Source: Escherichia phage SUSP2
Sequence record: KT454806
Reading direction: 5' to 3' (one strand)
DNA: 64,000 nucleotides
The notes beneath the pieces are model-generated. The model ran no database searches and had not been told where the DNA came from. It saw only the letters and a list, made by a program, of their open reading frames with translations. Positions 4,793-59,425 of this stretch are shown one piece after another. Numbering within the stretch: position 1 is the first letter of the stretch; each line of letters begins with the position of its first letter. A program made the translations under genes and the position numbers.

Positions 4793-5896
4793 CTATTCAT
4801 AATCCCTAATAACGAGACCAACAGGGAACTGTAAAGACCCCTTACGAGTCATCTTCTGGAACTGAACCGTCAAAGGTTTCCCGATAAACTCTTCAGGATG
4901 TTCAGCAAGATACTGTTTCTTTTCATGGGTAGTTTTCCATGAAACATCTACAAAGACGTTAGGAAGAGTCTCTACAACGAACTTACCATGACCACGTTTA
5001 TCAGTCTTCACACCAGTTACTTTAAATTCTTCCGTGTGCATCTTCTTATGCTTAATCAGGAAGTAAGAACGGTGACCACACTCATAGAAAGATTCTGCTG
5101 AGATGGAACGGTACATTGCCCCTTCAAACTTCAGCTTAACCCAATTGTCATGGGCTTTGTCGAACTCTTCCCAAGAGTTAACACGGATAGTTTGCACAGG
5201 TACAACCCTACAAGCATCACCGAGTTCAACAATTGGAGAGTTATCAATGATTTCACGGCGCTCAGGCCAAGTTTTAGTTTTGTCACAGATATCATACCAG
5301 TAGAATTTAAGTAGGTGACGGTCTGGATTGTCAGCATTCTTAATCATAGACACGATATCTTCTAAATCCCAACCATGAGCATAGATTTCACCATCAAAAT
5401 CTTGAACTTGTGGGTGGCATTTAAGCATCAGAAGCAAGTCTGGAATTAACTCTTCAGGTACGTTGTACACAGTATTTTCACGGGAGTAAGCTGTGAAGTT
5501 CACTGAGTCAGCATCTCTTGATATACGGCAACGAACACCATCAAGCTTCGGTTGAGCATCAGCAGGGAACTTCAAATACTTGGCATGACTGACCTTTGCA
5601 GCATCTTGTGCAAGTTGTACACCAACCTTCTCAGTGTTCTCTGCTTCAGATTTTGTGTAAGCATAACCTTTACGGTCAACCTGTTTCTTGTACTTAGCAG
5701 CAACTTCAAAGAGAGCTTGCTGTTCAGCATTACGCTCATTCTTTTTACCGATGTTTTTCGGTTCTGCTGTGTACTCTTCAAACATCATCTTGCCATTTTC
5801 TTTGCCATACGTGGTAACAACTTTGTCACCTACAGCGACACATGACCAGACATTAAAAGAGCCATCTTTATTTTGTTTGTACAGAATTGTCATCAT
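4793..5896 (-). CDS. ATP-dependent DNA ligase
   Basis: PKLDGVRC matches ligase adenylation motif I (KxDGxR); about 370 aa as in T7/T4-type ligases; start chosen at internal Met overlapping upstream stop. Confidence 0.8.
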   Translation of the reverse strand: MMTILYKQNKDGSFNVWSCVAVGDKVVTTYGKENGKMMFEEYTAEPKNIGKKNERNAEQQALFEVAAKYKKQVDRKGYAYTKSEAENTEKVGVQLAQDAAKVSHAKYLKFPADAQPKLDGVRCRISRDADSVNFTAYSRENTVYNVPEELIPDLLLMLKCHPQVQDFDGEIYAHGWDLEDIVSMIKNADNPDRHLLKFYWYDICDKTKTWPERREIIDNSPIVELGDACRVVPVQTIRVNSWEEFDKAHDNWVKLKFEGAMYRSISAESFYECGHRSYFLIKHKKMHTEEFKVTGVKTDKRGHGKFVVETLPNVFVDVSWKTTHEKKQYLAEHPEEFIGKPLTVQFQKMTRKGSLQFPVGLVIRDYE

Positions 5897-31444: not shown

Positions 31445-33811
31445 ATGCGCATGGTAAATGACCACGCAGAGGTGATTAAGAGTTCATCTTCATTAGAAAC
31501 TTCTCAGGCGTCTATCACGATGACTCCTGAAATGTTCAGCCTGTTAAGTTCAGGTGTTTACACTTTTAAAGAACGTGCGGTAATCCGTGAGTTGTCATGT
31601 AATGCTGTAGACACCCACAAAGAAGCTGGAAAAGAGAATGTGCCGTTCCGTGTACATTTGCCAACTCGTTTTGACCCATACTTTGAAGTCCGTGACTTTG
31701 GTACTGGTCTGACTCACGAGAAGGTCATGTCTTTGTACCTGAACTATGGAGCTTCTACTAAGAATGACTCGAATGACTACATCGGTGCTATGGGTATCGG
31801 TTCAAAGTCACCTTTTGCAATCGCACAGTCATTCACCGTGTCCAGTTACGTAGATGGTGTGGTTAACAAGTACTCTGTATATCTTGAGAATGGTATTCCT
31901 CAAGTTACTAAACTGACGACCAACCCGACTACCGAACCAAATGGTTTAGCAGTTCGTGTTGCAGTAGCTGACCACCGTATTCAGAAGTTCCATGAAGAAG
32001 CGAGCAATGTATTCTCTTACTTCAAATTGAAACCAGAATGCAACGTAGAATACCGTGATATTCTTAGCGAGATGACTACCATTGTCCGTGAAGATGGTGT
32101 TTACGATGCGATGAAGTATAAAGAGAACTGGCGTTCAAGCAATAACCAGACAAATTTCAACGTTGTCATGGGTAACATTGCTTATCCTGTTGACTTAGGA
32201 GACTTGCTTGGTGCAGAGTTCACCAATGTTCTTCCTACATTCTTCCGTAACGCTGTAGACCTTGTTAACATCTACATGCCGATTGGTTCAGTAGCTATCG
32301 CTGCATCTCGTGAAGCATTGCAGATGAATGAGACCACCAAGAAAGCAATTACAGATGCAGTTAAAAAGATTACTGCAACAATTGTAGAAGATGTGGTAAA
32401 ACGTATTGCTGACGAACCAACTCTGGTAGATGCAGCACAGGCTTATGCAGACTTGCGAGCTAACTCTCGTGAAATCTTCCAGCATGTGTTTACCCGTCTT
32501 GAGTGGAATGGTCAGAACTTAAGTAACCTTGAGCAGAAACTTTTAAAGATTCGTCAAGGACAATTAAGTAATCAAGATGGTACTCCAAAGTTTGCGACTG
32601 ATGATTCAGGAGCTTTGGTTGTTGATAAGAGTGGTAATCATATTCCAGTGATTGGCAATCTTTATGAACCTGTTGCATACTTTAAGTACAGCCAGCTTGA
32701 GAACAAAATTCGTGCTACTTCAGCGTTGTACACTCAGGAGGGTGCAAACTTCAGTATCTTCGGTGCAATGAGTAAGAACAAAATGTCTAACTATTTGTTC
32801 CTTATCAATGACCGTCGAAACAAAAATGGTACTGAAAAGACTGTAGGACGTAATCAGATTATTCGTGGTGCTTGCCGTGACCGTGAAAATGAAGAACCAA
32901 ACTTCCGTCGCTATAATGGTATTGTATACGTCTTCTCTGATGAGAAAGAGTTAGATGATTTTATCAGTCTTCACATGCTTGATAAGAGTCTGTTGACGAT
33001 TGTTAAAATGTCTGACAAAGAGCATCACTATGTGAAGCGTACCGTGACTCGTGGTGTTGTAAAACTCTACAAAGCTTCTGTACATGAGCATGGAGTGTCC
33101 TATGGAGAAGTGAAAGAAAACTTTGATGATATTGAAGAACCTCAGTATTATATCAAGGCTCAAAGTGATGAGGTTCTTGGTGGTATATTTAACTGTTCTC
33201 CAGAGGCGGCTGCTAAGGTATCTGCACGTTTAACTGGACAGTCAGTTTATGTGTTCCGTAAAGCAAACTGGAAGAAAATTCCTGAAGACTGGTTAGAAGT
33301 AAATCAGCAAGTCTTCAAAGATTCTATCACTGACATTCACTGGATTGAGTTTAACCGTTTTGTAACTCGTGAATGGTGTAGTTCAAACTGTGATATCACT
33401 GATAAAGGTGTTATTGCCAGAACGTTCCAGTTTGGTGATAAGAAGTGCTCAAGAGGTTATGTCTACAGTGCTGACTACAGCAAACGTATCTTCTTGGAAG
33501 GGAACGAAGAGGCTGTAGAAGCAATGTTTGGTAAGCTGGCTTATGTCGCTTCACCAATTGCTTATAAGGACGTTACAAGTGTTCTGCATGACTTACAACG
33601 CTTGACAAGAGCCAAGAGTAAGGTACACTCTGCAATCTACAATGCAAGAGAACGTATTAAGCAGAAACTGAGTGTGTACTTCACAGCACGTAAAGCAGAA
33701 AACTTCTTGCTTTCTAACTTAGACTGGAATAAAGTAAGTCCTGTTGAAGTTGGTCAGTTCTTAGGATTTGATGTTAAGTGCATCCCTGAAGGAACTCAGG
33801 CTTTTGATTAA
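31445..33811 (+). CDS. rIIA: rIIA-like protein with N-terminal GHKL (Bergerat-fold) ATPase domain
   Basis: 788 aa; N-box ELSCNAVD, G1 box RDFGTGL, G2 box GAMGIGSKS; size and domain order as T4 rIIA. Confidence 0.6.
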   Translation: MRMVNDHAEVIKSSSSLETSQASITMTPEMFSLLSSGVYTFKERAVIRELSCNAVDTHKEAGKENVPFRVHLPTRFDPYFEVRDFGTGLTHEKVMSLYLNYGASTKNDSNDYIGAMGIGSKSPFAIAQSFTVSSYVDGVVNKYSVYLENGIPQVTKLTTNPTTEPNGLAVRVAVADHRIQKFHEEASNVFSYFKLKPECNVEYRDILSEMTTIVREDGVYDAMKYKENWRSSNNQTNFNVVMGNIAYPVDLGDLLGAEFTNVLPTFFRNAVDLVNIYMPIGSVAIAASREALQMNETTKKAITDAVKKITATIVEDVVKRIADEPTLVDAAQAYADLRANSREIFQHVFTRLEWNGQNLSNLEQKLLKIRQGQLSNQDGTPKFATDDSGALVVDKSGNHIPVIGNLYEPVAYFKYSQLENKIRATSALYTQEGANFSIFGAMSKNKMSNYLFLINDRRNKNGTEKTVGRNQIIRGACRDRENEEPNFRRYNGIVYVFSDEKELDDFISLHMLDKSLLTIVKMSDKEHHYVKRTVTRGVVKLYKASVHEHGVSYGEVKENFDDIEEPQYYIKAQSDEVLGGIFNCSPEAAAKVSARLTGQSVYVFRKANWKKIPEDWLEVNQQVFKDSITDIHWIEFNRFVTREWCSSNCDITDKGVIARTFQFGDKKCSRGYVYSADYSKRIFLEGNEEAVEAMFGKLAYVASPIAYKDVTSVLHDLQRLTRAKSKVHSAIYNARERIKQKLSVYFTARKAENFLLSNLDWNKVSPVEVGQFLGFDVKCIPEGTQAFD

Positions 33812-33824
33812 AAATAGTTTGACA

Positions 33825-33840
33825 GGGGCTGCAAAGCCCC
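33825..33840 (+). terminator. hairpin terminator candidate embedded in a promoter-like spacer
   Basis: GGGGCT-gcaa-AGCCCC, flanked by TTGACA (33819-33824) and TAGAAT (33842-33847). Confidence 0.4.
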
Positions 33841-33890
33841 TTAGAATACGAACCACTAAGTAATATTAACTAACAAGAGAGAGTAATAAG

Positions 33891-35000
33891 ATGACTACTA
33901 AAACTAAAGCACAAATCGACGCAGAAATCTATGCACTGGTTCAGGAAGGTAAACTGACCAAAACTGCCATTGCAATGAAGTATAACACTTCTACTCGTTC
34001 CGTTGGTCGTGCTGTAGAACGTCACGAAGCAACACTGAAAGGTGCTAAGAAAGCAACTTCCAAGCCAGCTAAACAGACTCTGAAACAGATTGCAAAGTCT
34101 GCTAAGAAGACGTCTACTAAGCCAGTTGCCAAGGCTGTTAAAGAGGCAGTGAAGAAAGAACCTGTTAACCAACTGCACGAAGCAATGCAGAATGGTAACC
34201 AGATTGAGTACATGATTACTGGTGATTCTGTTATCATGACTTTCGGTGCAGATTCTGAAATCGTTGAGTCTACCCATCCGAACTATAAAGAAATCGTGAT
34301 GGCTGTTGTAGGTGGTGAGTACAAGAAAGCTTTCGAACTGATGAACATTCGTAAGTCTATTGAGAACTTCACTCAGGGTGCAATCACCATCAAAGGCGAT
34401 AACCTGTACTACGGTGCTGTTCAAATGCGTTCCACTCTGGTAGACCGTATTCTGGATATGATGAAAGCTGGCGACGATGGCTTTAAACGTCTGGTAGCAT
34501 TCTTCGAAAAACTGATGGAAAACCCATCCAAAGATTCTGTAGAACAACTTTGGGGATTTGTATCCCACCTTGACGTTGAGATTGATGAAGAAGGTTATAT
34601 CATCGGTTGGAAGAAAGTTACAACTCGTGGTGGTAAGCTGTTTGACTCCCGTACCTGCAAAGTTCCTAATGATTTGGGTAACGTTGTAGAGATGCCACGC
34701 TGGATGGTTGATAATGACCGTACAGTAACTTGCTCTCAAGGTCTGCATGTTGGTGCTTGGGATTATGTCCGTAGCTTCTCTGGTGACACTATCCTGAAAG
34801 TTCGTGTACATCCACGAGACGTTGTATCTGTACCAACTGACTACCAAGATATGAAAATGCGAGCTTCCCGTTATGAAGTTGCAGCAATTGTGAATGGTCA
34901 GCGTCAGGTTGTCAAAGAGTGGGATGGCAAATCTGAAGCACTGCATGTTGTTGTAGGCACTGCTGGTGAACTGATTTCTCAGCGTAAACGTGAAATCTAA
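33891..35000 (+). CDS. rIIB: rIIB-like protein
   Basis: 369 aa immediately after rIIA-like gene; assignment by position and size, N-terminal pattern weakly resembles rIIB. Confidence 0.45.
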   Translation: MTTKTKAQIDAEIYALVQEGKLTKTAIAMKYNTSTRSVGRAVERHEATLKGAKKATSKPAKQTLKQIAKSAKKTSTKPVAKAVKEAVKKEPVNQLHEAMQNGNQIEYMITGDSVIMTFGADSEIVESTHPNYKEIVMAVVGGEYKKAFELMNIRKSIENFTQGAITIKGDNLYYGAVQMRSTLVDRILDMMKAGDDGFKRLVAFFEKLMENPSKDSVEQLWGFVSHLDVEIDEEGYIIGWKKVTTRGGKLFDSRTCKVPNDLGNVVEMPRWMVDNDRTVTCSQGLHVGAWDYVRSFSGDTILKVRVHPRDVVSVPTDYQDMKMRASRYEVAAIVNGQRQVVKEWDGKSEALHVVVGTAGELISQRKREI

Positions 35001-35016
35001 TAAGTAAATTCTTAAA

Positions 35017-35039
35017 GGGCTGCTTCGGCAGCCTTTTTT
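35017..35039 (+). terminator. rho-independent terminator
   Basis: GGGCTGC-ttcg-GCAGCC plus TTTTTT. Confidence 0.7.
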
Positions 35040-35100
35040 ATTTGTGTTTTGTGCAGAGTAGTGTATAATTGCTTGCATGTTGAACTAAACAGGAGAACCA

Positions 35101-35652
35101 ATGAAGAAGTTCATTTTAGGTTTGTGCTTATTCTTAACAGCACATTTGGCAGTCGCTTCAGACTGTCCAGAATTATCCATCAGTCAGAAAACAAACATGC
35201 TTAAAGCTTATCACTACGGTGAGAAAGAGATGGGTAAAGGTTGGGGATTAACCTTAGCCGCTATAGCCTTACAAGAGTCAGAGTTAGGTCTTCGTCTTGA
35301 AAATAAAAAGACTCACGATTATGGATTGTTCCAGAATCACTTGAAGACTGTTGTAAAGCGTAACAAAGTTAGCCCAAGCGTAGCTAAGAAGAAACTTATC
35401 AGAGACTTCAATTATGCTGCAAAGGAGACACACAAAGAGCTTCAGTTCTGGACTAAGGTTCATGGTAATCCTAATGGGAAATACTCTTTACAGCGTGTCT
35501 TAGCTTCATATAATGCAGGGTACTCATACCGCATTCCAAAAGCTAGACAATACTCTCAAGATGTGTACAATAACATGAAGGTGCTTGCTCAATGTGAGTT
35601 TGCAACAAACATCAAAAAGGTTAAACATGAGCGAATTAAAACAATTGGATAA
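35101..35652 (+). CDS. secreted lytic transglycosylase (SLT domain)
   Basis: Signal peptide MKKFILGLCLFLTAHLAVAS; catalytic-region motifs ALQESELG, DYGLFQ, SYNAGYSY. Confidence 0.7.
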   Translation: MKKFILGLCLFLTAHLAVASDCPELSISQKTNMLKAYHYGEKEMGKGWGLTLAAIALQESELGLRLENKKTHDYGLFQNHLKTVVKRNKVSPSVAKKKLIRDFNYAAKETHKELQFWTKVHGNPNGKYSLQRVLASYNAGYSYRIPKARQYSQDVYNNMKVLAQCEFATNIKKVKHERIKTIG

Positions 35653-36322
35653 GGTATTTTGTCACGCTTACGATATCAATCCTCTGGCTATAGATATCAG
35701 TGCTGCAAGCTGGACAGACCTTATGAAAGAAGACTTTGCAGATACTGCAAGGGCTGTTGAATGTGACTTCAAAGATTTTCATTCATCTGCTGAAACAGTT
35801 CTCTGTACAGACCTTCAAACAGGTAAGTCAGTATCAGTTAAGCGTGACAGCTTAATCTTGGTTGCAAAAGACCTTGATATGAAGAAGCCAATGGTTTTAA
35901 CAGATATTGATGGCGTTCTCACTAAGTTTGATAAGCCAACAAACTCAACGTATCTGGAAGATGGAACTCTGTCACAGTATACAAACTTGATTGAGTCAGT
36001 TGATGCACAACCTACGTACATCTTTAACATCATTTCAGGCATTCACAAGAGTGCTGCAATCGGTGTTTTAACTGCTCGTGGTGAGTCTCAACGTGTACCA
36101 ACTCATTTGTTTATTGATAAACACATTGTAACTGACTACATGCTCTTTATGCGTGGTTTTGGTTCAAACAGAATCAGTGCAGAAAGTTTGAAAGTTCGTA
36201 TGATTCAGTCTTGCATTCTTCCGTACTATGATGTAGTATGCTTTATAGAAGATACAGTAAAGAATGTTGAGAAGGTTAAACGAATCCTTCCAGACATTAA
36301 CACAATGCTTATCAAACACTAA
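35627..36322 (+). CDS. hypothetical protein (possible HAD-like phosphatase)
   Basis: 231 aa from internal ATG; VLTDIDGVLT resembles HAD motif I but is not N-terminal. Confidence 0.35.
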   Translation: MSELKQLDKVFCHAYDINPLAIDISAASWTDLMKEDFADTARAVECDFKDFHSSAETVLCTDLQTGKSVSVKRDSLILVAKDLDMKKPMVLTDIDGVLTKFDKPTNSTYLEDGTLSQYTNLIESVDAQPTYIFNIISGIHKSAAIGVLTARGESQRVPTHLFIDKHIVTDYMLFMRGFGSNRISAESLKVRMIQSCILPYYDVVCFIEDTVKNVEKVKRILPDINTMLIKH

Positions 36323-36334
36323 GAGAGAGAAATC

Positions 36335-36799
36335 ATGCAAAACATTATTACAGTAGCTATCGACGCATCAGCAAACAAATCACAGGTTGTTCGTGATATC
36401 ATTAAAAGCAACTTTGATGGCAAAATCTTTCGTGCTGTCAACGTAAAAGTGGATGGTGATATCCGTGAATATCGTGCTTTGCTGAACGTGTCAAAACACG
36501 TTAAAGGTGTCGGTTCTACTACAGCACATAAAGAAAACCTGATGACCATCTATGATATGGGTATGGCTTCAGAGTTGGGTGCTAAAGGAATTGTACAGTC
36601 CGGTGCTCCGTACCGTTCTTTCAATCTGGAAACTGCTCTTATGCTTTCCTTTACAAGTGGTTCACAAACTACCACGTATCTCTTTACTGATGCTGCAACG
36701 GTATCTGCCATTAAGGATAGCACTATCAAGGCTGGCGTAGCTGCTGCTGCAAAAGCTTCAACGATGGCTGCAAATGTCCTTGCTAAAGTCCTCGGTTAA
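36335..36799 (+). CDS. hypothetical protein
   Basis: 154 aa. Confidence 0.5.
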   Translation: MQNIITVAIDASANKSQVVRDIIKSNFDGKIFRAVNVKVDGDIREYRALLNVSKHVKGVGSTTAHKENLMTIYDMGMASELGAKGIVQSGAPYRSFNLETALMLSFTSGSQTTTYLFTDAATVSAIKDSTIKAGVAAAAKASTMAANVLAKVLG

Positions 36800-36811
36800 G
36801 GTTATGATACA

Positions 36812-36832
36812 GGCTCCTTCGGGAGCCTTTTT
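36812..36832 (+). terminator. rho-independent terminator
   Basis: GGCTCC-ttcg-GGAGCC plus TTTTT. Confidence 0.7.
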
Positions 36833-36850
36833 CGTTTTAGGAGATTGTAT

Positions 36851-37009
36851 ATGTACAAAACATATTTGATAACAGTCGTCATAAAGGGTGTTGAAATTAC
36901 CCTCCCAATGGCATCTAAAACTACTTGTGAGGTAGAGGCTTTGCAAGAGTTAGTTGAGCAAGCTGAATTACTTTATCCACAAGCTGAATTTGTTTATCCA
37001 GCAGTGTAG
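36851..37009 (+). CDS. small protein (52 aa)
   Basis: ATG after GGAGATTG RBS; below ORF-track cutoff. Confidence 0.35.
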   Translation: MYKTYLITVVIKGVEITLPMASKTTCEVEALQELVEQAELLYPQAEFVYPAV

Positions 37010-37021
37010 AGGATACTAAAA

Positions 37022-37369
37022 ATGACATTTAAAGAGTTCTGTCAAGCCGCTTTCATAGTTGTTTTTCTGATTGGTGTAGGTGTTTGGGGCGGTTATTCTT
37101 ATAAGGATTACCAAGTCACTCAGACAGAATTGACTAATCAGAAGCTTATAAGCGTTGCTAAGGATGCTTACCAAGAAGGTTTAGCAAATCTTAGCTCCAA
37201 TTATAAAAATGATTTGAAAGATGTGCTTGCTAAAAACAAACACACAAAAGAGGTATTGACATATGAGAAGACTAAGCCAGAGTTTTATAACATTTGTGCT
37301 ACTGATACTTATGTCAGGGTGTTCAATGAACAAAGTGAACTCTACGTTCAAAAACTCCCAAGTAAGTGA
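37022..37369 (+). CDS. membrane protein, i-spanin-like candidate
   Basis: 115 aa; N-terminal TM helix AAFIVVFLIGVGVWGGY then helical region. Confidence 0.4.
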   Translation: MTFKEFCQAAFIVVFLIGVGVWGGYSYKDYQVTQTELTNQKLISVAKDAYQEGLANLSSNYKNDLKDVLAKNKHTKEVLTYEKTKPEFYNICATDTYVRVFNEQSELYVQKLPSK

Positions 37370-37532
37370 AAGTGATAAGTACACTCAAGAAGAATCACGC
37401 TATGTTGTCAAGGGCAATACAGGCACAGACCTGTCACAAGCCCTTGAATTTTATCGTGATGGGTACTATCAATGTACGATGAAAGCCAATAATTTAATTG
37501 ATATGATTTTGTTAGGGAATAAGCAGCAATGA
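37263..37532 (+). CDS. lipoprotein, o-spanin-like candidate (overlaps 37022-37369 out of frame)
   Basis: Lipobox LILMSGCS; AAAGAGG RBS; 107 nt overlap with upstream TM protein gene. Confidence 0.45.
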   Translation: MRRLSQSFITFVLLILMSGCSMNKVNSTFKNSQVSESDKYTQEESRYVVKGNTGTDLSQALEFYRDGYYQCTMKANNLIDMILLGNKQQ

Positions 37533-37798
37533 GTCAAGAGACAGAACTGTTCTACACAGAAGGTTATTTACTTCTTCCAAGACCAAAAGATACTTATATG
37601 CGCATTGACTTCATGCCAATGGTTATGGATGATGTGATGTGTCATATCTTTATGAAGGGTATCACAACACAGTTGAAAGATACTGGAAGAGATTGCAAAT
37701 TAAAGATTGACACTCATCCAGAAATCAAAGAGAATCACTACACATGGTTCTTAGAAGATACCAAAGAAATTATGGCAGTTCTCAAAACGAGGAAGTAG
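37529..37798 (+). CDS. hypothetical protein
   Basis: 89 aa. Confidence 0.45.
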   Translation: MSQETELFYTEGYLLLPRPKDTYMRIDFMPMVMDDVMCHIFMKGITTQLKDTGRDCKLKIDTHPEIKENHYTWFLEDTKEIMAVLKTRK

Positions 37799-37799
37799 C

Positions 37800-37976
37800 A
37801 TGTCAAGCAAAGAGAAGTTGATTGAACTCATCAAAGAATACGGTCAAGCACGTTACAACGTTGCTGGAGAAAGCTGTTGTGGTGATATTGACAGTATGAC
37901 GATGTGGGAAGAAACTTCAGAAGCAATTCTACAACAAATTGAAGAGGTAGTCTCTGATGGAATTGAACGGTAAAAC
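37800..37976 (+). CDS. small protein (58 aa)
   Basis: Below ORF-track cutoff; tight fit between neighbours. Confidence 0.3.
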
Positions 37977-38283
37977 CTTCGTAGCTGTCATCCAAGATAG
38001 TGAAAAAGATATTGGCGTAGCACAAGTCACATATGGTAATGGTGAGTTCCTTTATGGTATTGTGGCAATGGTTGGTACAAGAGGCGACACACCAACCTTT
38101 CATGATTGTGTAGATAAACTCGAAGAGTCTGTCAGGAATCATTGGTGTCTTATCTGGATGAATGAGAAAGATATCAAAGAGCGTTATACTAAACTTGGTA
38201 TTGACATTGCTGGCATAGAGCATGTAGACTTGTACGAGTTGACAGAGAAAGTTCTCTTTGAAAAAGGTAAAGAAAATGGCTGA
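37957..38283 (+). CDS. hypothetical protein
   Basis: 108 aa. Confidence 0.45.
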   Translation: MELNGKTFVAVIQDSEKDIGVAQVTYGNGEFLYGIVAMVGTRGDTPTFHDCVDKLEESVRNHWCLIWMNEKDIKERYTKLGIDIAGIEHVDLYELTEKVLFEKGKENG

Positions 38284-38476
38284 TTTCTGCAAAGACTGTT
38301 CCATCGAACTGTTTGGACGTGACACAGGGGACTTAAAAGGTCTTATCTCTGAAGAAGAGTTCAAAGCTGGTTACGCTATGCCAACACTCTGTGAAGGTTG
38401 TGGTGGAATCTGGGTAGACCATGAAGGACAGCGTGTGAAGCCTTCTAAAGATAAAGAATCATGGGAGAAATGGTAA
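38276..38476 (+). CDS. small zinc-ribbon protein
   Basis: CKDC..CEGCGG. Confidence 0.4.
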   Translation: MADFCKDCSIELFGRDTGDLKGLISEEEFKAGYAMPTLCEGCGGIWVDHEGQRVKPSKDKESWEKW

Positions 38477-38477
38477 G

Positions 38478-39260
38478 ATGGGTATTGTAAAAGTCATCAA
38501 AGGGGATATCTTCACAGACTTTGAAAAAGGTAAGTTTGATATCATCGGTCACGGTTGCAACTGTATGAATCTGATGGGTGCAGGTATCGCTGACAAGATT
38601 TCTAAGGGTTATCCAAAAGCCTATGAAACTGATGCTGAAGTCTACCGTGTAGCAGGAGGAAGAGAGCATAAACCTTGTCAGAAACTGCTTGGTAAACTCT
38701 CTGTAGCACGTCTTAAACAAGGTCGTATTGCTAACCTGTACACTCAGTTGAAGACTGGTAAAGATGCTCGCTACGATGCTCTTGAGAGTGCTCTGTTGAG
38801 CCTTAACCAGTACTGCAAAGTAAATCAATTGAAGAAAGTTGGTCTTCCAATGATTGGTGCAGGGATTGGTGGACTTGACCCGAAAGCTATTGTGGTGATT
38901 ATGAATCACATCTTGAAAGATGTTGATGTTTATCTTTACGTGTTTGAAGAGGCAATGTTTAATACTCTGTCAACATGGGGTAATCACAGTGAACCACAAT
39001 ACTTTGCAGGTGTAGCCGTTGTCAACGAAGACGGAGTTACCCTCTTCAGGCATCGTAAGAACAAGGTACATCGGAGTAACCCTCCGGTTGAGCGAATGTC
39101 TCTAAGTAACGCTCAAGTTACCCCGCCGTTGAAAGGAAGTATGCAACGTGCAGTGACATTTGGAAGTGAGCCTGATGTGTACATTCTTGCAGCAAATGAG
39201 AAAGATGCTGAAGCAATTGTAGACATTTCTAATATCAAGTTCTTAGCTGCAAAGAACTAA
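38478..39260 (+). CDS. macro domain protein (ADP-ribose binding/processing) with C-terminal extension
   Basis: VKVIKGDIFTDFEKGKFDIIGHGCNCMNLMGAGIADKI and GLPMIGAGIGGLDP match macro-domain glycine-rich loops. Confidence 0.7.
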   Translation: MGIVKVIKGDIFTDFEKGKFDIIGHGCNCMNLMGAGIADKISKGYPKAYETDAEVYRVAGGREHKPCQKLLGKLSVARLKQGRIANLYTQLKTGKDARYDALESALLSLNQYCKVNQLKKVGLPMIGAGIGGLDPKAIVVIMNHILKDVDVYLYVFEEAMFNTLSTWGNHSEPQYFAGVAVVNEDGVTLFRHRKNKVHRSNPPVERMSLSNAQVTPPLKGSMQRAVTFGSEPDVYILAANEKDAEAIVDISNIKFLAAKN

Positions 39261-53103: not shown

Positions 53104-53568
53104 CTATTTCGGATAAACAGCGTCAAGGTAAATTTTTGCTTCTAAACTACGTCTATTTTTCAGACCCTTAGAAACTTCTTTCTTACCGTTGACTGTTACC
53201 TTGTTCCACCACTGCATAGCTTCAGCACAACCAGCCTTATTACCAGCATTGTGACGCTTGATGAAAGTGGAATCTCTCATAGCTGTGATGCCAATGTTGT
53301 AAGTTTCTACAACGAGAGCATCAAACTCATTTTGGGAAGTTGGAACCTTGATAGCTTTGTTCACCGCACCAACATAGCTTTCAACATCTGCAAGCAGATA
53401 CTGTTCAGCTTGTTCAGAAGTAATCTTCATACCCATCGTAACAGGTTTACCACCAATACGGATTGTCCCGTACCCAATTGTTGGGATTCCAGCAGAGTCT
53501 TTATAGGCTTCTAGACGAAGCCCTTCAAAAAACTTAATTGCTGCAAGCCCCTTATCAGAGAGTTGCAT
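53104..53568 (-). CDS. endolysin, T4-type lysozyme (GH24)
   Basis: N-terminus AAIKFFEGLRLEAYKDSAGIPTIGYG matches the catalytic E..D..T triad region of phage lysozymes. Confidence 0.8.
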   Translation of the reverse strand: MQLSDKGLAAIKFFEGLRLEAYKDSAGIPTIGYGTIRIGGKPVTMGMKITSEQAEQYLLADVESYVGAVNKAIKVPTSQNEFDALVVETYNIGITAMRDSTFIKRHNAGNKAGCAEAMQWWNKVTVNGKKEVSKGLKNRRSLEAKIYLDAVYPK

Positions 53569-53570
53569 TA

Positions 53571-54455
53571 TTAACCTCCTACTTCGTTAACCACAACAGT
53601 AGCTGCATTAGAAGTCACAGAACCACCTGCACCAGTAACTACACAAGTGTATGTTCCGGCATCATCAGCAGTTGTTGCATCCTCTTTTGTGTAAGTCGCT
53701 GAAGTTGCTCCAGAGATGTTATCAGCACCTTTCTTCCACTGGTAACCAGTTGCTCCAGTAGCCACGATGCTCAACTCAAGAGTGTCACCTTCAGTGATTT
53801 CAACGTTTTGCGGCTGCGTAGTGATTACTGGCAAAGCATTCACTGTCACAGTTGCAGCATTTGACGTTACAGTTGCACCACCTTCACCAGTTACTACGCA
53901 GGTGTAAGAACCAGCATCAGCAGGTACTACATTTGATTTGGTGTAAGTTGCAGATGTTGCACCGGAGATGTTACTTGCGCCTTTCTTCCACTGATAACCC
54001 GTAGCACCAGTTGCAACAATACTCAGAGTCAGCGTTCCACCTTCGTTAACAGTCTGGTTAGTAGGCTGCGTAGTGATTACTGGAGGAACTACAGAGTCTT
54101 TCAGTTTTGCGTTCAGCATTGAGAAAGGTTTGACCCTTGCAAGCCATTCACAGTAAACGGTGTCAACGTCTTTACCGTTGATAATTGCATACTGCAAATC
54201 CATGAAGAAATCAGCAGTTCTCATCTGAGCACCAACGCTGTAAAGGAGTTCTGGACTGAATGGGACTGTATAGGCTGGCTCATAAGCAAAGTTGGTCACC
54301 TCTGCAATATCTGCTTCAGGCCAAGGTGAACTGTAAGTCAGTGGTAGAATAGCTTCTTGATATGTTCTGAAGTCATATCTTTTACCAGCTTTAACGTTCG
54401 CAATAAAACCTTTAACGAACTCTTTGAAATCTGGATATGTTTTTGCCTTAATCAT
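53571..54455 (-). CDS. protein with two tandem Ig-like repeats (possible virion-surface or decoration protein)
   Basis: Repeated blocks PVITTQP..TLxLSIVATGATGYQWKKGAxNISGATSATYTK..AGxYTCVVTG; N-terminal domain paralogous to 54448-54822. Confidence 0.55.
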   Translation of the reverse strand: MIKAKTYPDFKEFVKGFIANVKAGKRYDFRTYQEAILPLTYSSPWPEADIAEVTNFAYEPAYTVPFSPELLYSVGAQMRTADFFMDLQYAIINGKDVDTVYCEWLARVKPFSMLNAKLKDSVVPPVITTQPTNQTVNEGGTLTLSIVATGATGYQWKKGASNISGATSATYTKSNVVPADAGSYTCVVTGEGGATVTSNAATVTVNALPVITTQPQNVEITEGDTLELSIVATGATGYQWKKGADNISGATSATYTKEDATTADDAGTYTCVVTGAGGSVTSNAATVVVNEVGG

Positions 54456-58110: not shown

Positions 58111-58187
58111 CTCCGTTTAGCTCAGTTTGGTAGAGTGCGCCGTTTGGGGCGGTGAGGTCGAAGGTTCAATCCCTTCAACGGAGACCA
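58111..58187 (+). tRNA. tRNA-Pro (anticodon UGG)
   Basis: Hand-folded cloverleaf: acceptor ctccgtt/aacggag, anticodon loop tttgggg, T-arm gaagg-ttcaatc-ccttc, encoded CCA. Confidence 0.75.
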
Positions 58188-58194
58188 AATTAAT

Positions 58195-58272
58195 GTTCCA
58201 GTAGACAAATTGGTAAAGTCACCACACTTTCAATGTGGAGTTTTGAGGGTTCAAGTCCCTTCTGGAACGCCA
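58195..58272 (+). tRNA. tRNA-Glu (UUC)
   Basis: Acceptor gttccag/ctggaac, anticodon loop ctttcaa, CCA. Confidence 0.75.
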
Positions 58273-58355
58273 AATTTGACAGAAGACCAAGTACAGCAAA
58301 TAACTTTACTTTTCGCGCATAGAAAACTTAAAAGTTTGGTCTGGTCATAAAAGTT

Positions 58356-58432
58356 CGCGGGTATAGAGAAAGGGCGTCTCACATGTCTCATTAGCATGGT
58401 ATCGGCAGGTTCGACTCCTGCACCCGCCTCCA
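58356..58432 (+). tRNA. tRNA-like gene, anticodon CAU (Met/Ile2/fMet undetermined)
   Basis: T-arm gcagg-ttcgact-cctgc, anticodon loop ctcatta; 1-72 mismatch and unusual discriminator. Confidence 0.4.
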
Positions 58433-58514
58433 AATTTGCAGAAGACCGTTTACAGCAATCTCAAAAATTTTTATCGGAAAAAATGAAAAGATACGGTCTG
58501 GCAATACTAAACAT

Positions 58515-58591
58515 GGTGAGGAAGCACATAAGGCATGTGCGGTCGGCTGTTAACCGAATGGTATAGGGTTCGAATCCCTAACTCACCGCCA
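58515..58591 (+). tRNA. tRNA-Asn (GUU)
   Basis: Anticodon loop ctgttaa, T-arm taggg-ttcgaat-cccta, CCA. Confidence 0.7.
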
Positions 58592-58651
58592 AGATTTGGG
58601 AGAGAAGCGTAATGCTCACCGATTTGTAAGGTGCAAGTCCTTAGCCTGAAT

Positions 58652-58739
58652 AGAATAAAATGCGTCGTTATCCCGTAGATGGAAGCGGTGGTGACTGTAA
58701 ATCACTTGTCATTATGACTCGGTAGGTTCGACTCCTTCA
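58652..58739 (+). tRNA. tRNA-Tyr (GUA), long variable arm
   Basis: Acceptor gcgtcgt/acggcgc, anticodon loop ctgtaaa, 88 nt. Confidence 0.65.
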
Positions 58740-58745
58740 CGGCGC

Positions 58746-58823
58746 ACCAAATAAAGGTTATGTAGTTTAATCTGGTTAAAATACTCCCCTGTCACGGGAG
58801 ATGATGAGGGTTCGAATCCCTTC
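58746..58823 (+). tRNA. tRNA-Asp (GUC)
   Basis: Anticodon loop ctgtcac, stem ctccc/gggag, CCA. Confidence 0.75.
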
Positions 58824-59261
58824 GTAACCGCCAAATTTGAGAGGGCTTTTTAGCCCCTCCCTTAAAGAGTTCTTACGAGTATTCTTTAAAGGAGCAGAAG
58901 ACCAAATTCAGCAAGCCAACTTAAAAAATTTCAAGCCAATTTAATTTTGAAAAATTTAAAACTTGGTCTGGCTCAACAAATTTACAGAAGACCGTTTACA
59001 GCAAGTATAAAACAATCTATTTCTCTGGTAAAGAAAAGGCGAAGGTTCGATTCCTTCACACGTTACGGCGTGTTGGTGTAATGGTAGCACTTAAGATAAA
59101 ACAACGGTCTGGTAATCTTCTTTGCAGTGACTTATGGAGCTAAATGCCGTCCCATGAGTGCCGATGAATTTCCTTAGCATGATTCTAGATTAGCTTAATA
59201 GGAAATGACTCTACAAACCCTTTAGCAAGGTTTGCGTAGGTTACTGCAAAGATGATTTAAT

Positions 59262-59337
59262 GGGAGTGTAGCAGAATGGTGATGCGGCAGACTTTTAATC
59301 TGACAGGCGACGGGTTCGAATCCCTCCACTCCTACCA
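59262..59337 (+). tRNA. tRNA-Lys (UUU)
   Basis: Acceptor gggagtg/cactcct, anticodon loop cttttaa; weak T-stem. Confidence 0.6.
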
Positions 59338-59343
59338 AATAAT

Positions 59344-59420
59344 GGTTCAGTCGCAGATAAGGTAATGCAAGGGTTTCATAAGCCCTATGAATGTGGGTTC
59401 GAATCCCATCTGAACCTCCA
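59344..59420 (+). tRNA. tRNA-Met-type (CAU)
   Basis: Acceptor ggttcag/ctgaacc, anticodon loop ttcataa. Confidence 0.65.
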
Positions 59421-59425
59421 ATTAT

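Follow-up and report, generated by a model that had tools for sequence, protein, structure and literature searches.

An overlapping transmembrane-protein and lipoprotein gene pair in Escherichia phage SUSP2 is very probably the two-component spanin already catalogued for Felix O1-like myophages

What is the role of a small membrane-protein gene that is overlapped out of frame by a lipoprotein gene, in a phage whose recognized endolysin gene lies far away on the opposite strand? The question is raised by a stretch of 64,000 nucleotides from Escherichia phage SUSP2 (sequence record KT454806; hereafter the window). An earlier note, made by reading this DNA alone, had interpreted the two genes as an i-spanin and an o-spanin and had taken the lysis functions of the phage to be dispersed. 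We asked whether both overlapping frames are genes, whether the pair is a spanin, and how far its mode of action may be deduced from the spanins that have been studied. The features of the pair itself are the following.

37022 to 37369, plus strand: putative i-spanin gene, 115 aa (open reading frame, hydropathy, PHROG 1152, pN/pS, SpaninDB JH2 i-spanin family)
37263 to 37532, plus strand: putative o-spanin gene, 89-aa precursor (open reading frame, lipobox rule, PHROG 4180, pN/pS, SpaninDB JH2 o-spanin family)
37263 to 37369, plus strand: dual-coding overlap of 107 nt, holding i-spanin codons 81-115 (frame 0) and the first 36 o-spanin codons (frame +1)
37009 to 37013, plus strand: Shine-Dalgarno-like GAGGA, 8 nt before the i-spanin ATG
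37250 to 37253, plus strand: Shine-Dalgarno-like GAGG, 9 nt before the o-spanin ATG and inside the i-spanin coding sequence

A 4.5-kb query around the spanin genes placed the window among the Felix O1-like myophages, which belong to the subfamily Ounavirinae. This query matched 256 phage records, the best of them being CHB7 (97.5%), PC79-13 (96.8%) and mistaenkt of the genus Suspvirus (96.5%), and the classical Felixounavirus genomes matched it at approximately 79%. The genes lie within a T4-like early-gene neighborhood that comprises rIIA, rIIB, a Vs.1 homologue and the gene for polynucleotide kinase (pseT), the last of which is located 0.7 kb upstream of the pair. Directly upstream of the spanin unit is a hairpin that resembles an intrinsic terminator and that was found by alignment to be kept in relatives.

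36811 to 36838, plus strand: intrinsic-terminator-like hairpin, AGGCTCC-TTCG-GGAGCCT followed by a T-run

A scan for promoters returned 19 sites, as compared to 13.2 +/- 4.6 in shuffled sequence, and thus no excess. The sole local peculiarity with respect to members of the JH2 family, to which we return below, is an insert of 171 bp (36849-37019) that contains a 52-aa ORFan, separates the ancestral ribosome-binding site from the i-spanin start codon and is common only to phage IME338 and the present stretch. Alignment with relatives revealed that the GAGGA preceding the i-spanin gene comes from this insert and not from the ancestral sequence.

The product of the first gene has only one hydrophobic segment, near its N-terminus, where the Kyte-Doolittle value of the 19-mer spanning residues 6-24 peaks at 2.01; elsewhere the protein is polar. 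From this profile we infer a transmembrane anchor that covers roughly residues 6-26, followed by a periplasmic domain of 88 residues, in an N-in/C-out orientation, which is the type II layout that had been proposed for this open reading frame. The protein matched PHROG 1152, named 'Rz-like spanin' (E 2e-38), a family that also takes in the i-spanins of IME267 and Pistou, two of the distant loci tested. Invariant residues in its C-terminal region, in relatives down to 23-35% identity, are E82, K83, F88, N90, C92, Y97 and F101-N102-E103.

The product of the second gene begins with MRRLSQSFITFVLLILMSG followed by C, an N-terminus that fits a PROSITE-style lipobox rule (TFVLLILMSG, then C) with Cys20 as the cysteine, Ser next to it at +2 and MRRL as the basic n-region. 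This bears out the claim that 37263-37532 is a lipoprotein gene with lipobox LMSGC; moreover, the check suggested in the earlier note, prediction of a signal-peptidase II site and of a transmembrane segment, gave a lipobox and a hydropathy profile that both fit the spanin layout. The predicted mature protein consists of 70 residues, none of which is proline. Since Ser, not Asp, follows Cys20, sorting by the Lol system to the outer membrane is predicted. When all 299 open reading frames of at least 45 aa in the six frames were searched, this gene was the only credible lipobox candidate; two further matches to the lipobox expression were short and otherwise unsupported, one of them having its Cys at residue 41. 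The Shine-Dalgarno-like sequence before the gene recurs unchanged in relatives, for whose o-spanin genes GAGGT is listed in SpaninDB (Kongari et al. 2018, PMC6139136). By profile search the protein belongs to PHROG 4180 (E 2e-47) and PHROG 2425 (E 4e-9), which cross-match each other and both of which carry no functional name, and its match to a named spanin family was weak (PHROG 456, 'Rz-like spanin', E 7e-4). Residues that are invariant even when distant relatives are included are C20 and S21 and, in the C-terminal region, G54, L61, E62, D66, C71, N76 and L78. A single-sequence AlphaFold2 model of low confidence (mean pLDDT 55.4) consisted of a disordered linker and a C-terminal helix at residues 57-85.

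The two genes overlap out of frame as the earlier note had described; the second is read in +1, and its shared codons encode the signal peptide and the start of the linker. An 89-codon open frame would arise by chance with a probability of about 0.003 at the local base composition, and the +1 frame of the i-spanin gene contains nine stops in its first 80 codons and none in its last 35. Inside the overlap, however, openness of the frame is uninformative, because the +1 frame stayed open in 94% of synonymous resamplings in which the i-spanin amino-acid sequence was held fixed. Therefore, measures of selection were instead employed. We assembled a set of relatives from 28 loci of viral contigs and two annotated genomes, with i-spanins 80-87% identical to the present one. 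In all 30 the two frames were open, encoded 115 and 89 aa and overlapped by 107 nt, and none of the 30 had lost the lipobox, the transmembrane segment or either of the two cysteines (C92 of the i-spanin, C71 of the o-spanin). Using the Nei-Gojobori method on 28 distinct sequences, we obtained pN/pS values outside the overlap of 0.15 for the i-spanin gene and 0.11 for the o-spanin gene, against 1.0-2.1 for wrong-frame controls. Synonymous diversity was 4-7 fold lower in the overlap (0.10 and 0.076) than in the single-coding parts (0.385 and 0.568). Variable sites made up 24% of the overlap versus 40-43% of the sequence outside it, and their third-position excess vanished inside the overlap. Depressed synonymous change together with the loss of the third-position excess is what dual coding predicts.

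The suggestion that only the membrane-protein gene is real and the +1 lipoprotein frame fortuitous, which could appeal to the ease with which that frame stays open across the overlap and to the several GenBank records that lack the second gene or start it at an internal Met, is refuted by the selection analysis. The 163 nt of the o-spanin gene outside the overlap combine their low pN/pS with a preponderance of third positions among the variable sites (46 of 70), and synonymous change in the i-spanin gene is suppressed only in the overlap. Every relative, down to four distant ones at 27-35% identity, retains the lipobox and Cys20. That gene callers miss or truncate o-spanin genes is, moreover, a documented artifact (260 of 528 cases). 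Conservation of only one of the two frames in related phages, the outcome that the earlier note had named as fatal to its reading, was not what we found: both frames are under purifying selection and both are kept at approximately 30% identity. Judged by these comparisons of sequence, both overlapping frames are real genes.

We then compared the pair with the criteria for two-component spanins set out by Summer 2007 and Kongari 2018. The first protein is small, with a single predicted N-terminal transmembrane domain and a polar C-terminal remainder, and the second has a predicted lipobox whose Cys is invariant and is followed by a residue other than Asp. The genes overlap, with the i-spanin gene first. 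Each protein has a periplasmic Cys near its C-terminal region, C92 and C71 respectively, both of which are invariant down to 23-35% identity; periplasmic cysteines near the heterotypic interface are a published rule that holds for 507 of 528 spanin systems. The combined periplasmic length of 88 + 70 = 158 residues lies inside the published range of 62-300 residues for known spanins. Proteins 80-87% identical to the present pair are labeled i-spanin and o-spanin in many Felix O1-like records. [quoted passage not shown] The JH2 i-spanin family has 15 members and the JH2 o-spanin family 11 (Kongari et al. 2018, PMC6139136). Felix O1, JH2, EC6, Moogle, Mushroom, UAB_Phi87 and WV8 are represented in these families, and the i-spanin family additionally holds phiEco32, NJ01, KBNP1711 and ECBP2 (PMC6139136).

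The entry for Felix O1 in particular reads almost as a description of the present locus. Its architecture is given as 'ovl' in the +1 frame, with the i-spanin at 5330-5678, the o-spanin at 5571-5841, an overlap of 107 and lengths of 115/89 aa; the periplasmic parts measure 88/70 aa, the lipobox is IMSG, and each protein has one periplasmic Cys (PMC6139136). We found the proteins of the JH2 families to be without difference from ours in overlap, frame, lengths, lipobox ([LI][MI]SG before the Cys) and the single Cys of each protein. When the Felix O1 genome was surveyed manually, this pair was chosen as its spanin (PMC6139136), and the Mijalis and Mushroom papers concur with the Moogle genome paper (2015) on the spanin pair. 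The phage is a Felix O1-like myophage, and the pair is very probably its two-component spanin, of overlapped architecture and belonging to the JH2 families. The PHROG 1152 match, the annotated relatives and the SpaninDB entry for Felix O1, which differs neither in architecture nor in lengths or overlap, all agree with the i-spanin/o-spanin reading that prompted this analysis. Both the observation and its interpretation as a spanin are already known, because the pair is catalogued in SpaninDB and annotated in many records, and the scattering of the lysis genes has been published. The analysis therefore carries little weight as a discovery, and its practical value lies in annotation. In several related records the o-spanin is missing or begun at an internal Met, so that it has no signal peptide, and the two PHROG families of the o-spanin are nameless. 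Since Felix O1-like phages are used for biocontrol of Salmonella and E. coli, a correct inventory of their lysis genes is of some applied use.

Two candidate partners of the pair in lysis were located in the window.

53104 to 53568, minus strand: endolysin gene, a soluble lysozyme of glycoside hydrolase 24 type (Pfam Phage_lysozyme, E 3e-39; PHROG 7 endolysin, E 4e-57)
61651 to 62208, plus strand: putative holin gene, 185 aa with one N-terminal transmembrane segment, assigned by homology to an annotated protein only

The endolysin gene adjoins a tail-protein gene (53571-54455) and is 15.6 kb from the spanin pair on the opposite strand, in agreement with the approximately 16 kb stated earlier. 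The putative holin is 95% identical to a coding sequence annotated 'holin' in phage Mushroom, sits within a cluster of 25 tRNA genes and falls in PHROG 2143, which has no assigned function; a PHROG scan of the membrane-protein candidates in the window returned no named holin family. Spanins, endolysin and putative holin each occupy a locus of their own, so that three separate loci on two strands are involved. [quoted passage not shown] T4 likewise has its genes e, t and pseT.3/pseT.2 unlinked.

Searches with tblastn extended the comparison to more distant phages. Relatives of the i-spanin were detected at approximately 30-34% identity in phiEco32-like podoviruses (Gordonclarkvirinae), and relatives of the o-spanin at approximately 29-33% identity in Ounavirinae of Erwinia and Pectobacterium. 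At each of four distant loci that were inspected, those of IME267 and LAMP (Gordonclarkvirinae), Erwinia phage Pistou and Pectobacterium phage Arno162, the same overlapped pair was present: an N-terminally anchored protein of 115-119 aa, overlapped in +1 by a lipobox protein of 82-91 aa, at 23-35% identity to the present pair. The lipoprotein gene was unannotated or truncated in most of the four. In Arno162, a lysozyme gene that is 44% identical to the endolysin of the window lies directly upstream of the pair, an arrangement which, as far as gene order can tell, is an independent genomic linkage of the pair to lysis.

This linkage bears on a different reading of the locus, namely that the two proteins are an envelope system with a role other than lysis, such as superinfection exclusion or a block to DNA injection, expressed early with the rII genes. 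Phage-encoded envelope proteins with functions in exclusion do exist, examples being the lipoprotein Llp of T5 and the membrane proteins Imm and Sp of T4. The location of the pair in a T4-like early-gene neighborhood, far from both endolysin and putative holin, is what such a role would lead one to expect, and it would be compatible with the nameless state of the o-spanin PHROGs. Our literature search likewise found no functional test of the JH2 spanin family and no experiment on its members; spanin experiments have essentially all been conducted on lambda, together with a test of T4 by the SpaninDB authors themselves (Kongari et al. 2018, PMC6139136). However, the T4 spanins are also encoded in an early-type region, by pseT and far from e and t, and yet they complement lambda spanin mutants. 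Paired, overlapping genes for a transmembrane protein and a lipoprotein, whose products have cysteines and conserved C-termini, are moreover the signature of spanins, and the Arno162 pair follows directly after the endolysin gene while that of Felix O1 was taken as the spanin in the manual genome survey. We know of no exclusion system that consists of an obligatory overlapped pair of transmembrane protein and lipoprotein. A non-lysis role is for these reasons very unlikely.

Under the preferred reading, that of a spanin, the two proteins would act as follows. The 115-aa i-spanin would insert into the inner membrane by means of its N-terminal anchor, leaving about 88 residues in the periplasm. 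The 89-aa precursor would be exported, lipidated on Cys20 and cleaved by signal peptidase II, and the resulting o-spanin would travel via the Lol system to the inner leaflet of the outer membrane. The two proteins would then bind each other through their conserved C-terminal regions, forming a bridge that crosses the periplasm and is threaded through the peptidoglycan meshwork, and the single invariant periplasmic Cys of each protein (C92 and C71) would probably provide stabilizing intermolecular disulfides. Once the holin (probably the product of 61651-62208) had released the endolysin, degradation of the wall would free the spanin complexes, which could then fuse the inner and outer membranes as the last step of lysis. 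By analogy with lambda Rz/Rz1 and T4 PseT.3/PseT.2, we infer the localization of the pair, the formation of its complex, the disulfides, the fusion of the membranes and the timing of their action.

The best-studied point of comparison is lambda Rz/Rz1. Both systems combine a type II protein of the inner membrane with a lipoprotein of the outer membrane and encode the two in different frames of shared DNA, the lipoprotein being read in +1; they also have in common periplasmic cysteines, C-terminal conservation and a presumed part in the last step of lysis. In lambda, however, the lipoprotein gene is embedded and the pair belongs to the lysis cassette, whereas the present genes overlap and lie outside a lysis cassette. 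The o-spanins also differ: lambda Rz1 is a short, proline-rich protein of about 40 aa, as opposed to 70 mature residues devoid of proline here. An unstructured character has been published for Rz1. Pfam searches with both spanins of the window yielded only sub-threshold noise (SH3b_T, ATG1 MIT) and no lambda-type Rz/Rz1 family. Because there was no Pfam match and no proline in 70 residues, we regard the present pair as an analogue, and not a member, of the lambda Rz/Rz1 families. In published Jpred predictions the periplasmic domain of the Felix O1 i-spanin is 66% helix with no predicted coiled coil, and its o-spanin is 20% helix and 16% strand (PMC6139136). The lack of a predicted coiled coil sets the Felix O1 i-spanin apart from the lambda model, in which coiled coils drive the fusion. 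Since the o-spanin contains no proline, the i-spanin has no predicted coiled coil and the architecture is different, the details of the lambda model may not transfer.

The second comparison is with PseT.3/PseT.2 of T4. These proteins are of similar size (the record used gives 117 and 99 aa) and are likewise unlinked to endolysin and holin; their genes are near that for polynucleotide kinase, in a region with rII, vs.1 and tk.4-type genes, and predictions for the T4 o-spanin show a flexible linker ahead of a helix, much as in our low-confidence model of the present o-spanin. The differences are that the T4 genes have a separated architecture with only a 4-nt junction, that the cysteines are distributed as 0 + 2 in T4 versus 1 + 1 in the present pair, and that the gene order relative to pseT is reversed. 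Since the gene for polynucleotide kinase is near the spanins both in T4 and here, we tested for homology. BLASTP against PseT.3/PseT.2 gave no alignment for the i-spanin and an E value of 3.4 for the o-spanin, and the PHROGs of the two pairs are disjoint (739/812 in T4, 1152/4180 here). Homology to the T4 spanins was rejected on these grounds, and the parallel is one of analogy or else too old to detect.

These differences leave room for an alternative at the level of mechanism, in which the outer membrane is disrupted in a manner unlike that of lambda, for instance by a short helical o-spanin C-terminus locked in place through a heterotypic C92-C71 disulfide. The published table without a coiled coil for the Felix O1 i-spanin and the mature o-spanin without proline both point in this direction, as do the linker and C-terminal helix (57-85) of the o-spanin model and the fact that each subunit has a single invariant Cys, close to its conserved C-terminal motif. 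It has also been proposed that divergent spanins may reach membrane fusion by different routes (Kongari et al. 2018, PMC6139136). On the other hand, the disulfides are homotypic in both systems that have been tested, lambda and T4, and a structure model with a mean pLDDT of 55 is unreliable. We consider this alternative unlikely. A broader claim, that the spanin of the JH2 family (Felix O1/phiEco32-type) is mechanistically distinct in having neither a predicted coiled coil nor a proline-rich o-spanin, a heterotypic C92-C71 disulfide and perhaps early-type transcription independent of endolysin and holin, is in our judgment unlikely. The preferred reading remains a spanin that bridges the envelope and fuses its two membranes.

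A further envelope-directed protein had been described in the neighborhood of the pair, a secreted SLT transglycosylase 1.4 kb upstream. The protein in question is encoded at 35101-35652 and comprises 183 aa with a signal-peptide-like N-terminus, its gene ending 1.37 kb upstream of the spanin pair, so that the position is as stated; the SLT domain could not be assigned with confidence, as the Pfam SLT match is borderline (20.5 bits versus a cut-off of 21.3), although a marginal match of this kind runs through the whole family. As the criterion for a family 1 lytic transglycosylase we used an above-threshold profile match together with the motifs E-S, G-L-x-Q and A/S-Y-N-x-G. The SLT match recurred in five of five diverse family members tested (best E 1.4e-5), and invariant in the five aligned members were E59-S60, G75/F77 and S136-Y-N-x-G140, corresponding to motifs E-S, G-x-F-Q and S-Y-N-x-G. 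Sequence and profile searches of this protein against solved structures gave spurious kinase matches only, and its single-sequence AlphaFold2 model (pLDDT 49.5) was too poor to use. T4 Vs.1 aligned over the full length of the protein with 31% identity (E 4e-15), which by sequence similarity makes it a homologue of Vs.1. The marginal but conserved SLT match of vs.1 had been noted earlier by Nolan et al. 2006 (PMC1524935). Relatives of the Vs.1 type were found in more than 2,100 phage records, mostly those of T4-like phages. The Mushroom and mistaenkt records label the gene 'endoribonuclease, T4 RegB-like', which is probably a mislabel and adds a further correction to the annotation of this region; in T4, regB adjoins vs.1.

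Alignment with relatives revealed an insertion directly ahead of the i-spanin gene. It falls precisely in the gap that separates the start codon of this gene from its ancestral ribosome-binding site (AGGAG). None of the 30 relatives compared carries it.

36849-37019: 171-bp insertion, identified by alignment with relatives
36851 (ATG) to 37009: 52-aa ORFan inside the insertion

The old AGGAG now serves the ORFan, for which PHROG and Pfam searches returned no match, and the insertion itself supplies a new GAGGA for the i-spanin. DNA-level and protein-level searches retrieved only one other record with the insertion, that of phage vB_EcoM_IME338 (L036, its extracted locus; MH051914.1). The patch formed by the upstream terminator-like hairpin and the insertion (window about 36730-37030) is 95-100% identical to IME338, whereas its flanks are just 75-85% identical, with 51-62% identity inside the kinase gene. 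This difference indicates that a cassette of about 300 bp was exchanged horizontally, and recently, between diverged Felix O1-like lineages. The i-spanin of IME338 is a mosaic, in which a Felix O1-type N-terminal part is joined to a window-type C-terminal part.

The spanins lie within a block of T4-like genes that also includes rIIA, rIIB, a homologue of T4 Vs.1 and a PseT-type polynucleotide kinase. Another protein of the block, annotated in relatives as a phosphatase or O-acetyl-ADP-ribose deacetylase, is possibly comparable to T4 tk.4.

31445-39260: block of T4-like genes containing the spanins
35101-35652: signal-peptide protein, T4 Vs.1 homologue (E 4e-15)

In T4 the spanins likewise adjoin pseT, although the gene order is reversed relative to the window, and protein comparison detected no sequence similarity between the window spanins and those of T4. 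The SLT matches of the Vs.1-type protein are marginal across the whole family. Its annotation varies among relatives: Mushroom and mistaenkt label it "endoribonuclease (T4 RegB-like)", CHB7 calls it a "putative lysin", and nearly all other records have it as "hypothetical"; the RegB label was probably carried over from the neighbouring T4 gene.

Further loci concern lysis functions.

L034 1794-2776: endolysin and homologous spanin pair of Pectobacterium phage Arno162 (Ounavirinae)
61651-62208: putative holin of 185 aa with one N-terminal transmembrane segment, 95% identical to Mushroom's annotated holin

In Arno162 the spanin pair is directly preceded by a lysozyme-type endolysin, 44% identical to the window endolysin, and together they constitute a partial lysis cassette, which the Felix O1 group, in contrast, lacks. 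The putative holin, whose family (PHROG 2143) has no assigned function, is the lone protein-coding gene enclosed by a cluster of 25 tRNA genes (window 58111-63578); the annotated holin gene of Mushroom is similarly embedded in a tRNA cluster.

The o-spanin lipoproteins belong to PHROGs 4180 and 2425, which carry no functional name, and their genes are variously annotated in related loci.

L001 3657-3863: mistaenkt, start placed at an internal Met
L031 2799-2972: IME267, start placed at an internal Met
L032 2790-2963: LAMP, start placed at an internal Met
L033 2501-2776: Pistou, not annotated as such
L034 2528-2776: Arno162, not annotated as such, a short 138-nt CDS covering just the 3' end
L036 1934-2203: IME338, not annotated as such

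Owing to the internal start, the annotated products of mistaenkt, IME267 and LAMP are deprived of signal peptide and lipobox. A complete lipobox ORF nevertheless exists in all six loci.
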